From an uncultured Enterobacteriaceae bacterium (GTDB lineage Bacteria > Pseudomonadota > Gammaproteobacteria > Burkholderiales > SG8-39), in assembly GCA_964565875.1 (NCBI GenBank), contig CAZMGP010000021.1, positions 9,094 through 73,093 of the forward strand: 64,000 nt of DNA. The letters are read 5' to 3'. Each line of letters opens with the position of its first letter. The stretch's first letter is position 1. Below, piece by piece: positions 3,017 to 59,248 of the stretch. Made by a program: the position numbers and the translations under genes. Below the pieces are notes generated by a model. That model made no database searches and had not been told where the DNA came from. It was given only the letters and a program-made list of their open reading frames with translations.

Positions 3017-3095
3017 TTGGAACCCGTAACAAAAGTCGTTTGTTACGGGCTGATTTAGGGGAGCACGAGGGGAGGTATCCCCTCGTTTTGTTACA
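3017..3095. ncRNA. Copy A of a conserved two-hairpin element (candidate sRNA or 5' leader)
   Basis: Hairpin 1 is CCCGTAACAAA[AGTCG]TTTGTTACGGG. A spacer containing AGGGGAGC follows. Hairpin 2 is ACGAGGGGA[GGTA]TCCCCTCGT followed by TTTTGTT. The same architecture recurs at 59148-59222. Strand is uncertain; the plus strand gives the better terminator-like U-tract. Confidence 0.4.
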
Positions 3096-3202
3096 GACTC
3101 TTACAGCAACTCACCCGGAAAGAGATGCGGAAGATATGGGGAGCCCCTACAGAGCTGACCTAAAGGAACTCCTGGCGGCGACGCGAACGGAGCGCTGCTA
3201 GC

Positions 3203-3580
3203 ATGCTGCGCGAGGTGCTCAATGTGCAGCAGGCGCCGGGGGAAGCGAAGCGGCGCTGGTTCTTTTGCCACGAGCAGGATCTGTCGGTGTGGTTCGGCGA
3301 GGACGGCGCGCCGCTCGCGTTCCAGCTCGCCTACGGCAAATACCGCGACGAGCACGCCATCCGCTGGAAGGCGGGCCGCGGCTTCGCGCACGAGCGCGTG
3401 GACGACGGCGAGAATGGGGGTCCGGTCAAGGCGACGCCTATCGTGCTCGCCAACGGCTTGTTCCCGGCGCAGGAGGTGCTGGAGAAGTTTCTCGAGCTCT
3501 CCGCCGAGCTGCCGCCGGACATCGCCGAATTCGTCGCCGCGCGGCTGCGCGAGTATGCCGCCGCGGCCGCGAACCCGTGA
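3203..3580 (+). CDS. Hypothetical protein (125 aa)
   Basis: Clean ORF with protein-like composition. It lies about 110 nt downstream of two-hairpin element copy A. I recognise no family. Confidence 0.5.
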   Translation: MLREVLNVQQAPGEAKRRWFFCHEQDLSVWFGEDGAPLAFQLAYGKYRDEHAIRWKAGRGFAHERVDDGENGGPVKATPIVLANGLFPAQEVLEKFLELSAELPPDIAEFVAARLREYAAAAANP

Positions 3581-31385: not shown

Positions 31386-31499
31386 GCGCGGCGATGCGCC
31401 TTGGGGGAAGCTCTAAGTAATGGCCTATTTCCCCGGAACGGACGATGAGCTTCCCTCTGAAGTGAGGGATATACGCCCCGAAGGAAGTCCCCTCGGGGG

Positions 31500-31522
31500 A
31501 CAAGGGGGCCGTGCCCCCTTGT
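31500..31522. terminator. Perfect 9-bp GC-rich hairpin between convergent genes (candidate bidirectional terminator)
   Basis: ACAAGGGGG[CCGTG]CCCCCTTGT lies between the 3' ends of 31074..31385 (+) and 31533..32141 (-). There is no clear U-tract on either strand. Confidence 0.4.
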
Positions 31523-31532
31523 TCGAACCTAT

Positions 31533-57799: not shown

Positions 57800-59044
57800 T
57801 TACGCCGGCTGCGCCGCGTCGACAGCGGCGATGACGGCGCGCATTCGCCAGGCCAGCCACAGCCCGGGTAGCGCGGCGAGGAAAGTGAGGACGAAGAAGT
57901 TCGCCCAGCCCATCGCTTCGACCAGGGCGCCGGTTGCCGGGCCGAACAGGATGCGACCGAGCGAAGCCACCGCCGAGAGCAGCGCGTATTGCGTGGCGGA
58001 GAAGCTGTGGTTGCACAACGCCATGGCGAAGGCGACGAAGGCCGCGGTGCCCATGCCGCTCGCGAGATTTTCGAAGCCGACCGCGAATACCAGCAGCGCA
58101 TAGCTCTTGCCCGCCCAGGCGAGCACGGCGAAAGACAAGTTCGATATCGCCTGCAGCCCGCCGAAAAAGAGCAGCGCGCGCGTGAGCGACATGCGCACCA
58201 GCAGCACACCGCCCACCAGGCCGCCCACCAGGAGCGAGGCGAGCCCCAGGACTTTGTTGATGGTGCCGACGTCGGTGAGCGAGAAGCCGACGCCGCGCAG
58301 GAGGAACGCCGTGGTCAGGGTGCCGGCGAGCGCATCGCCGAACTTGTACAAGGCGATGAGCGCAAGCAGTTGCAGCGCACCGGGGCGATGCAGGAGATCA
58401 GCGAGCGGATCGATCACCGCCGCGCGCAGGCTGCGCGGCGGGCTGGCGCGCACTGCGGGCTCGGGCGCGACGAGGCTGGTGACGATGCCTACCCCCATCA
58501 GCGCCGCCATACACAGCAACGTCTGCCGCCAGCCCAGTTGATCGGCGAGGATGAGGGCGAGCCCGCCCGAGGCGAGCATGGCGACGCGATAGCCGAGCAC
58601 GCCGACCGCCGCCCCCATGCCGCGCTCCTGCGCCGGCAACAGATCGGTGCGATAGGCATCGATGACGATATCCTGCGACGCCGAAGCGAACGCCACCGCA
58701 ACCGCAATCCAGCCGAGCAGCCACAGCTGTTCGCGCGGCGCGCTGTAGGCCATGGCGACGATGCCGAGGATGAGCGCGAGCTGTGTGAGCAGTATCCAGC
58801 CGCGCCGGCGGCCGAGGAACGGCGGCACATAGCGGTCCATCAGCGGCGACCACAGGACCTTGAGCAGATAGGGAATGCCGATCCAGGAGAACCAGGCGAT
58901 GGTCAGGATGTCCACGCCGGAGACGGTAAGCCAGGCCTGCAGCGTCCCGCCGGTGAGCGCAAGCGGCAGCCCAGAGGAAAATCCGAGGAGCAGCACGGCG
59001 GCGATGCGCGGGCTGCGCAGGATCTCCAGATAGGGCGACGACAT
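57800..59044 (-). CDS. ampG: AmpG-family muropeptide MFS permease
   Basis: LLLGFSSGLPLALTGGTLQAWL...IPYLLKVLWSPLMDRY.PPFLGRRRGWIL is the AmpG signature. 414 aa. Confidence 0.85.
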   Translation of the reverse strand: MSSPYLEILRSPRIAAVLLLGFSSGLPLALTGGTLQAWLTVSGVDILTIAWFSWIGIPYLLKVLWSPLMDRYVPPFLGRRRGWILLTQLALILGIVAMAYSAPREQLWLLGWIAVAVAFASASQDIVIDAYRTDLLPAQERGMGAAVGVLGYRVAMLASGGLALILADQLGWRQTLLCMAALMGVGIVTSLVAPEPAVRASPPRSLRAAVIDPLADLLHRPGALQLLALIALYKFGDALAGTLTTAFLLRGVGFSLTDVGTINKVLGLASLLVGGLVGGVLLVRMSLTRALLFFGGLQAISNLSFAVLAWAGKSYALLVFAVGFENLASGMGTAAFVAFAMALCNHSFSATQYALLSAVASLGRILFGPATGALVEAMGWANFFVLTFLAALPGLWLAWRMRAVIAAVDAAQPA

Positions 59045-59147
59045 GGGCGGATTCTACCTGCGTTGCCGGGCATCAAGGTTGATTTGGCAGGAGAAAGCCG
59101 GTAGCCTTGGGGAAATCCGCCAGCGTCTCAGCGAGAGCGGAAAATGC

Positions 59148-59222
59148 TTTGAACCCGCAACAATTGCTGTTGCGGGGCAAATCAGGGGAGCACGAGGGGA
59201 TCTGTCCCCTCGTTTCGTCACG
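59148..59222. ncRNA. Copy B of the conserved two-hairpin element
   Basis: CCCGCAACA[ATTGC]TGTTGCGGG, a spacer containing AGGGGAGC, then ACGAGGGGA[TCTG]TCCCCTCGT followed by TTCGTC. It ends ~27 nt upstream of the DUF883 gene ATG. Confidence 0.4.
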
Positions 59223-59248
59223 CAATCCAATTAGAAAGGCAATAAATC

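Follow-up and report, generated by a model that had tools for sequence, protein, structure and literature searches.

A two-hairpin element of an uncultured Burkholderiales genome is very probably an IS5-type miniature transposable element

The DNA analysed here, a stretch of 64,000 nucleotides from contig CAZMGP010000021.1 of an uncultured Burkholderiales genome (the window), holds two copies, A and B, of a short element with two hairpins, which the original prediction, made from the letters of the window, had proposed as a candidate structured RNA. We find that this element is a lineage-specific MITE (a miniature transposable element with inverted repeats) of the IS5 type, an ordinary genomic parasite of a well-known kind. 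More precisely, and with a probability that we put at about 0.88, it derives from an IS5-family insertion sequence (IS) of the type that carries two open reading frames (ORFs), DUF4096 and DDE_Tnp_1, and is itself non-autonomous. The approximately 100 look-alikes of a structured RNA that each genome of this uncultured genus contains are copies of one MITE, and what retains interest is an internal module that is conserved more strongly than the ends of the element.

A dispersed repeat family of one genus

Reading of the window sequence bore out the two look-alike elements and their identical core. This 30-nt core, AGGGGAGCACGAGGGGA-N4-TCCCCTCGT, occurs exactly twice in the window, with none expected from 100 shuffles. 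The statement that the element is present twice holds for the window but not for the genome from which the window comes (G000, an assembly of 5.1 Mb in 155 contigs, 94% complete). With up to three mismatches allowed, the core matched 62 times in G000, on both strands, against 1 match of the reversed control pattern, and an nhmmer profile built from the core matches gave 116 hits, of which 79 were close to full length. The core is also present in each of the 22 further genomes of this GTDB genus, with 7-96 matches per genome, and no match was found in 18 outgroup genomes, which represent different genera and families within the order.

Named public records with the element are mostly metagenome-assembled genomes (MAGs) of an uncultured Burkholderiales bacterium or a Betaproteobacteria bacterium. 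Some element-bearing MAG records (L016, L028, L031, L042, L046, L049 and others) are labelled Klebsiella pneumoniae, uncultured Enterobacteriaceae, Streptomycetaceae, Maritimibacter or Thermoanaerobaculia; such oddly labelled records with a Burkholderiales-specific repeat are probably mislabelled or contaminated bins.

The family consensus is C-TTA-[ GAACCCGTAACAAAAGTCGTTTGTTACGGGC TGATT TAGGGGAGC ACGAGGGGA GGTA TCCCCTCGT TTTGTTACAGACTC ]-TTA-G, where the brackets enclose the element. As in a MITE, the unit is short, multi-copy and dispersed, and its 81-bp body is without a transposase ORF. The terminal inverted repeats have the general form GARYCYGTAACAAAA, with ends GA(A/G)YCYGTAACAAAA, and the two ends of the family are alike (left, GAACCCGTAACAAAAG; reverse complement of the right, GAGTCTGTAACAAAAC), the right repeat being weaker in subfamilies 2 and 3. 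Hairpin 1 consists of the left repeat paired with its complement, and hairpin 2 directly abuts the T-rich right repeat. Three main subfamilies are told apart at hairpin 1 (GTAACAAA, G(T/C)TGCAAAA and CCATTTCAGAA) and also differ at one pair of hairpin 2, C:G versus T:A. In about one quarter of the copies the loop of hairpin 2 holds 1-3 extra hairpin units of ~27 nt.

Target-site duplications and empty sites

Among the copies in G000, the flanking triplets read TTA/TTA in 19 cases and TAA/TAA in 11, with 0 discordant pairs (30/30 agree). In a larger set of 184 distinct copies from more than 20 genomes, flanking TWA triplets were concordant in 56 cases and discordant in 6, and TCA/TCA and TGA/TGA pairs were also seen. 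Insertion duplicates 3 bp of the form TNA, mostly TWA, inside a CTWAG target. The first letter of the element is G and its last is C, which restores CTWAG on either side, and consequently a stop codon (TAA or TAG) or a ribosome-binding site (CTAAGGAG) that lies at the target survives the insertion.

Exact empty sites were found in G000 for ~10 copies that are present in relatives, for example CC-TCA-GTG in G000 versus CCT-TCA-[element]-TCA-GTG in the relative. In 11 aligned genomes (G001-G005, G009, G011, G014, G016, G021 and G022), the orthologous ampG-elaB spacer has no copy B and runs from GAGCGGAATTTACTC straight into GTTAGAGAGGCAA...ATG. BLAST pieces abut at the copy B point in 8 further genomes (G010, G012, G013, G015, G017, G018, G019 and G020), and by this kind of evidence copy B is absent from at least 17 related genomes. 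Copy B is an insertion specific to this genome. For copy A, no orthologous locus was found in the genus by blastn. Insertions differ between species. The original prediction had named a generic dispersed repeat as the outcome that would refute it, and this is what we found, with more than 100 copies, inverted-repeat ends, target duplications and empty sites.

We propose that the copies were moved in trans by an IS5-family DDE transposase, which was not found in the 94%-complete assembly, that A and B would be two independent insertions, and that B would have landed in the 5' leader of the elaB operon in this lineage only.

Some MITE copies are tandem or nested (C5:61962-62137, C84:3499-3660 and C86:15465-15600), with a CTTAG junction common to the neighbours. 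This arrangement is consistent with repeated insertion, each time into the CTWAG that an earlier copy restores at its end.

The probable source transposon family

A search with the end motif in 301 Burkholderiales genomes found another genus (G302, G219) in which TWA-GAGCGCGTAACAAAATGA ends bound both MITEs of 130-170 bp and a multi-copy IS cut at contig edges. One end of this IS reads GGGGAGG-N5-ATG and continues into the N-terminus MPKPLIEDELWAHIE, and the other encodes an IS5-like C-terminus, ...RVRYERLPSMHEAFLRLGACIICWRFLKAA and a stop. By tblastn this C-terminus, 33 aa long and without a Pfam hit, matches annotated IS5-family transposases on Burkholderiaceae plasmids.

The closest likeness was found in an annotated IS5-family IS on plasmid NZ_CP038639.1 of Cupriavidus oxalaticus X32 (WP_135707447.1), which reads cac-TAA-GAAGCCCTAACAAAATGA...TCATTTTGTTAGGCCCTC-TAA-g. 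Its terminal repeat GAAGCCCTAACAAAATGA is identical to the MITE repeat GAACCCGTAACAAAAG at 13/16 positions, it has the same 3-bp TWA duplication in CTWAG (TAA here, TTA in the copy of Cupriavidus sp. USMAA2-4), and its host belongs to the same order, Burkholderiales. Two overlapping ORFs in this IS match DUF4096 (3e-25) and DDE_Tnp_1 (2.3e-21). The IS differs from the MITE in being ~0.9 kb long and encoding a transposase, whereas the MITE has ~81 bp and no ORF, and in having no counterpart of the MITE interior (the 3' arm of hairpin 1, TAGGGGAGCA and hairpin 2). Published repeats of IS5-family elements are also alike, namely those of ISNme1, GAGACCTTTGCAAAA, and ISPg4, GAGACTGTTGCA (PMC4596501, Table 2).

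Two other elements were considered as the partner and rejected. The only DDE_Tnp_1 gene in G000, an IS1182-like transposase gene on C59, is without MITE-like inverted repeats. This IS1182-family gene lies at C59:25244-26686 (a 480-aa open frame at the contig end) and has the left terminus TTTAG-GAGTCAGAC; a relative in G009 (L174) has CTAG-GAGTCTGTCGG and perfect 20-bp repeats, CCTAGGAGTCTGTCGGACTT, and the ends of both match the MITE ends at the first few bases only. An IS427-like IS of six congeneric genomes has the repeat GGGSCTGTTGACATTC and a TA duplication, and was rejected for this reason.

Within the other genus, the MITEs with TWA-GAGCGCGTAACAAAATGA ends at loci L199 and L200 (G302) and L202 and L203 (G219) contain internal CCCTCTCCC...GGGAGAGGG hairpins that adjoin the T-rich right repeat, in parallel to hairpin 2 of the present MITE; the matching IS5-type IS breaks at least 5 contigs of G302.

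Pairing, covariation and conservation

The two hairpins described for each copy fold on either strand (z from -4.0 to -6.8; on the minus strand -6.8 and -4.0 for the two window copies). The compensatory change reported between them, GTAAC/GTTAC versus GCAAC/GTTGC, is real and extends to the family, as seen in an alignment of 114 copies that a covariance model with an explicit two-hairpin structure recovered from the window and 99 loci. This model was used instead of RNAalifold on a MAFFT alignment, which missed hairpin 1, the subfamilies being out of register. In the covariance-model alignment, standard pairs make up 90.6% of pair cells versus 74.0% in shuffles, double changes occur at 11/11 pairs of hairpin 1, and the covariation score is 0.374 versus 0.120 in shuffles (of which 0/500 come up to it) and no more than 0.075 when partners are slid, all of these figures being upper bounds because the structure itself was used to fit the alignment and the copies share a common descent. 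Folding of each copy independently of the alignment gave at least 8 pairs in hairpin 1 for 98% of 182 copies, with 123 distinct arm sequences. Hairpin 2 pairs in 99.3% of cells, and its sequence is almost invariant.

The columns of the internal module, TAGGGGAGCA plus the stems of hairpin 2, are 90-99% conserved in the 184 copies. Within each subfamily, mismatch to the consensus is 5-6.5% in the module, 10-18% in the inverted repeats and hairpin 1, and 15-34% in the loops and first spacer. The hairpin 1 covariation and the module conservation have three candidate causes: constraint on master copies; selection on surviving copies; and quasi-palindrome self-correction in replication, which could keep hairpin 1 paired without selection. 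No orthologous copy common to species by descent, which would separate these causes, appeared in ~50 locus comparisons; two cases in the same spacer were independent insertions of different subfamilies. A strand test on G:T versus A:C mismatches was not informative for hairpin 2 (15 vs 9), and an excess of minus-strand mismatches in hairpin 1 was rejected as a strand signal, being an inherited feature of the consensus.

Position and orientation relative to genes

According to crude ORF calls based on GC content at third codon positions, on which all counts of this section rest, the copies are mostly intergenic and occur in all four gene configurations, about 1/8 of the near-full copies overlapping an ORF call. 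Between co-directional genes, sense copies outnumber antisense copies 64:30 (p=6e-4), and the ratio is 56:20 for copies that have a neighbour within 300 nt on both sides (p=4e-5). Stop codons of genes abut the 5' end of the element 63 times and its 3' end 36 times, and gene starts at a distance of up to 40 nt were counted 53 times for the 3' end and 28 times for the 5' end. Orientation has no link to GC skew (24:28) and there is no replication-strand bias, so that the orientation bias follows transcription and not replication.

The orientation bias and the conservation of the module hint at an effect on transcripts, possibly termination. Hairpin 2 with its T-run on the plus strand had been likened to an intrinsic terminator or attenuator; as a prediction, this stands for copy A, which passes a simple terminator scan as does subfamily 1, but not for copy B (tail TTCGTCAC), which fails it. 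A sense transcript would form hairpin 1 and a hairpin 2 of great stability, with the U-rich right repeat next to it on the 3' side, and may act as a weak-to-moderate intrinsic terminator or as a stabiliser of the 3' end of the upstream mRNA. An antisense RNA would expose a free GCUCCCCU stretch resembling an anti-Shine-Dalgarno sequence, and could mask a nearby ribosome-binding site. One or both effects would explain the 2-3-fold excess of sense copies and a module kept better than the repeats.

Weighing the IS5-derived MITE against other readings

Several observations weigh against a MITE derived from an IS5-family element. Neither an IS with the MITE ends nor an IS5-type transposase of this group was found in G000, the Cupriavidus transposase had no tblastn match there, and the MITE ends are absent from the sampled DUF4096 and DDE_Tnp_1 loci of the genus (30 DDE_Tnp_1 loci). 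Because no partner turned up in G000 or in these sampled loci, the case for mobilisation in trans draws on elements in other genera. The missing partner may be an artefact of MAG assembly; draft MAGs often lose IS copies, and all genomes of the genus used here are draft MAGs. Furthermore, an internal module kept better than the inverted repeats is unusual and atypical for a MITE of the DDE type, and strong covariation in hairpin 1 is not needed for recognition of double-stranded DNA by a DDE transposase. On the side of transcript effects, the terminator reading is weak for subfamily 2 and copy B (tails UUUCGUAA and UUCGUCAC), a sense bias inside operons is not expected of a strong terminator, and the position counts inherit the crudeness of the ORF calls.

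The alternative that survives best accepts the MITE and adds that its module, co-opted by the host or preserved through selection among surviving copies, would serve as a portable terminator, RNA-stability site or protein-binding site. In its favour, mismatches within each subfamily are 2-3 times rarer in the module than in the inverted repeats, sense copies are in excess (64:30), stop codons abut the 5' end more often than the 3' end (63 versus 36 times), and MITEs with the same ends in another genus carry a G/C-run hairpin beside the T-rich right repeat. However, no orthologous copy shared between species was seen in the ~50 locus comparisons, constraint on master copies also gives uneven conservation, and the U-tracts are weak in 2/3 subfamilies, so we regard this addition as tentative and rather unlikely. 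A little more doubtful still is the specific proposal that the module, here TAGGGGAGCA together with the 9-bp GAGGGGA/TCCCCTC hairpin that adjoins the T-rich right repeat, is a portable functional unit and not passive cargo. Such a unit would be a predicted intrinsic terminator, a site for protein binding or a stabiliser of RNA 3' ends, and with it insertions at gene ends could be tolerated or of use; both the conservation above that of the transposon ends and the 2-3 times more numerous sense copies would then result from selection on transcripts.

A repetitive extragenic palindromic (REP) sequence or bacterial interspersed mosaic element (BIME), spread as single-stranded DNA hairpins by a REP-associated tyrosine transposase (RAYT, of the Y1/HUH type), would account for hairpins kept through covariation and not through sequence, for an internal hairpin conserved above the ends, and for the mosaic-like shuffling of small G4/C4 hairpin units among repeat families. 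We consider it very improbable, given that a Y1_Tnp (PF01797) gene is absent from G000, that the 3-bp target duplication is clear and the inverted-repeat ends are of the IS5-family type, that orientation has no link to GC skew, and that a unit of ~81 bp with two different hairpins exceeds the size of a REP.

The structured-RNA proposal itself has two forms, and both fare slightly worse. The element is indeed real, structured and conserved, but it is not a dedicated structured RNA, attenuator or small RNA (sRNA) gene belonging to the genes at 3203 and 59249. A cis-acting leader RNA, attenuator or riboswitch-like, that controls these two genes would agree with both window copies lying upstream of plus-strand genes and in sense with them, with the terminator-like hairpin 2 and T-run of copy A, and with the covarying hairpins; it is nevertheless hardly tenable with more than 100 copies beside unrelated genes in four configurations, with an elaB leader that is otherwise conserved and has no element in the 11 aligned relatives (at least 17 by abutting BLAST pieces), and with target duplications and inverted-repeat ends that mark insertion events.

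A family of minus-strand sRNA genes akin to the toxic small RNA RF02278, with CU-rich anti-Shine-Dalgarno motifs, has equally little to recommend it: the strand carries CCUCCCCU and GCUCCCCU and folds well, and RF02278 also has betaproteobacterial hosts and CU-rich stretches on one strand, but the likeness breaks down, in that one CU-rich motif is buried in the stem of hairpin 2 and not in a loop, neither a covariance-model match to RF02278 nor any Rfam hit at gathering score was obtained in the window, searches at E<=10 gave nothing relevant around either copy (chance miRNA and snoRNA hits only), no promoter-like site was found around either copy, and the element is transposon-marked, with over 100 copies that lie both ways relative to genes.

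Comparison with known repeats

Other MITEs derived from IS5-family elements are ATR of Neisseria meningitidis (from ISNme1) and BrickBuilt/MITEPgRS of Porphyromonas gingivalis (PMC4596501). They too are non-autonomous, intergenic and present in tens of copies, and their repeats GAGACCTTTGCAAAA and GAGCCCTTTGCA resemble the GAGCCCGTTGCAAAA of the present MITE, whereas hosts and interiors are different; BrickBuilt in addition has a 23-nt minisatellite and irregular duplications, in contrast to the regular TWA and more than 100 copies per genome of the present family. The Correia (NEMIS/CREE) and ERIC/IRU elements share the general features of dispersed intergenic MITEs of ~100-150 bp, with inverted repeats, TA-containing duplications, folding into hairpins, co-transcription with neighbour genes and orientation-dependent effects on expression (PMC3184786). 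They have no sequence relation to the present family, and their ends pair into one long hairpin, whereas the present MITE has two separate internal hairpins and ends that do not pair with each other. A SPRITE-like terminator repeat is likewise dispersed and ~100 nt long, with a terminator-like hairpin as the chief feature predicted for it, in an unrelated sequence and host; for the present family, termination is predicted for subfamily 1 only.

Consequences for annotation

Identification of the MITE removes a false lead, and its copies should be masked ahead of any search for sRNAs or riboswitches in these genomes. Because insertions differ between species, the family is usable as a marker of strains and species. 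It also illustrates cleanly, for bacteria, how an IS5-type element with CTWAG as its target can restore the stop codon or ribosome-binding site that it hits. If the module does matter to transcripts, this would be a mobile element that brings its own terminator, with insertions at gene ends tolerated.

The two copies in the window and their surroundings

The extents originally given, 3017-3095 and 59148-59222, do mark the element, with limits slightly short of its true span; revised limits and parts are collected in Table 1. In copy A, the 5' arm of hairpin 1 is the left inverted repeat itself.

Table 1. Parts of copies A and B in window coordinates.
Feature	Position	Strand	Basis or remark
Copy A, left target-site duplication TTG (1 change from TTA)	3017..3019	+	sequence; C3016 precedes
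Copy A, MITE body, 81 bp, subfamily 1	3020..3100	+	nhmmer 94.7 bits; covariance model 103.5 bits
Copy A, left inverted repeat GAACCCGTAACAAAAG	3020-3035	+	sequence and family alignment ends
Copy A, hairpin 1, CCCGTAACAAA / TTTGTTACGGG, 11 bp, loop AGTCG	3023..3049	+	fold; covariation at 11/11 pairs
Copy A, conserved module, spacer TAGGGGAGC	3056-3064	+	module overall 3056..3086
Copy A, hairpin 2, ACGAGGGGA-GGTA-TCCCCTCGT	3065-3086	+	terminator-like by simple scan
Copy A, right inverted repeat, reverse complement GAGTCTGTAACAAAAC	3085-3100	+	sequence and family alignment ends
Copy A, right target-site duplication TTA	3101..3103	+	sequence
Copy B, left target-site duplication TTT (1 change from TTA)	59148..59150	+	empty-site alignment; C59147 precedes
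Copy B, MITE body, 80 bp, older, right end degenerate	59151..59230	+	nhmmer 63.8 bits; covariance model 76.2 bits
Copy B, hairpin 1, CCCGCAACA / TGTTGCGGG	59154..59176	+	fold
Copy B, conserved module, spacer CAGGGGAGC and hairpin 2 ACGAGGGGA-TCTG-TCCCCTCGT	59183..59213	+	sequence, fold, core search
Copy B, right target-site duplication TTA, then G	59231..59233	+	matches GTTAG/GTCAG site of empty loci

Pfam agreed with the genes and the divergent intergenic position described for both copies. The neighbours of copy A are a Phi_1/EXORDIUM-like gene on the minus strand (1688-2812) and an ORF of 125 aa without known function (3203, plus strand). Those of copy B are a gene for an AmpG-like protein of the major facilitator superfamily on the minus strand (57800-59044) and, on the plus strand, a DUF883/ElaB gene (59249), downstream of which is a gene for a holin-X-like membrane protein. 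More closely, copy B is flanked on one side by a conserved block that resembles a promoter and has a leader hairpin, and on the other by the ribosome-binding site of elaB.

In the native ampG-elaB spacer (window 59066-59140), the block AAGGTTGATTTGGCRGGAGAAAGCCGGTAGCCTTG is kept in 12/12 aligned genomes and contains a possible -35 (TTGATT) and -10 (TAGCCT) pair, and a conserved hairpin, CCGCC(A/G)GCG...GAGCGG, lies 3' of it. Block and hairpin are probably the real promoter and leader of elaB. In three relatives (L155, G001:C2:11700-12150; L156, G009:C475; L157, G014:C44), a different insertion of ~90-150 bp stands just upstream of the ampG start; it has palindromic ends, AAGCTTC...GAAGCTT, and belongs to another small repeat family that is absent from G000 at this place.

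Elsewhere in the genome, a 275-bp element at C51:31790-32064 (also C29:52863 and C44:24224) has inverted TWAG-GAACCTGTTGCAGRATGA ends and is a second, longer MITE family with the same end type. Positions 31452-31530 of the window contain another modular repeat, which is built from G/C-run hairpin units (CCCTCTGAAGTGAGGGATATACGCCCCGAAGGAAGTCCCCTCGGGGGACAAGGGGGCCGTGCCCCCTTG). The same ~27-nt units recur in the hairpin 2 loops of the MITE and in at least 18 other places of the genome, and their shuffling between repeats resembles BIME mosaics.

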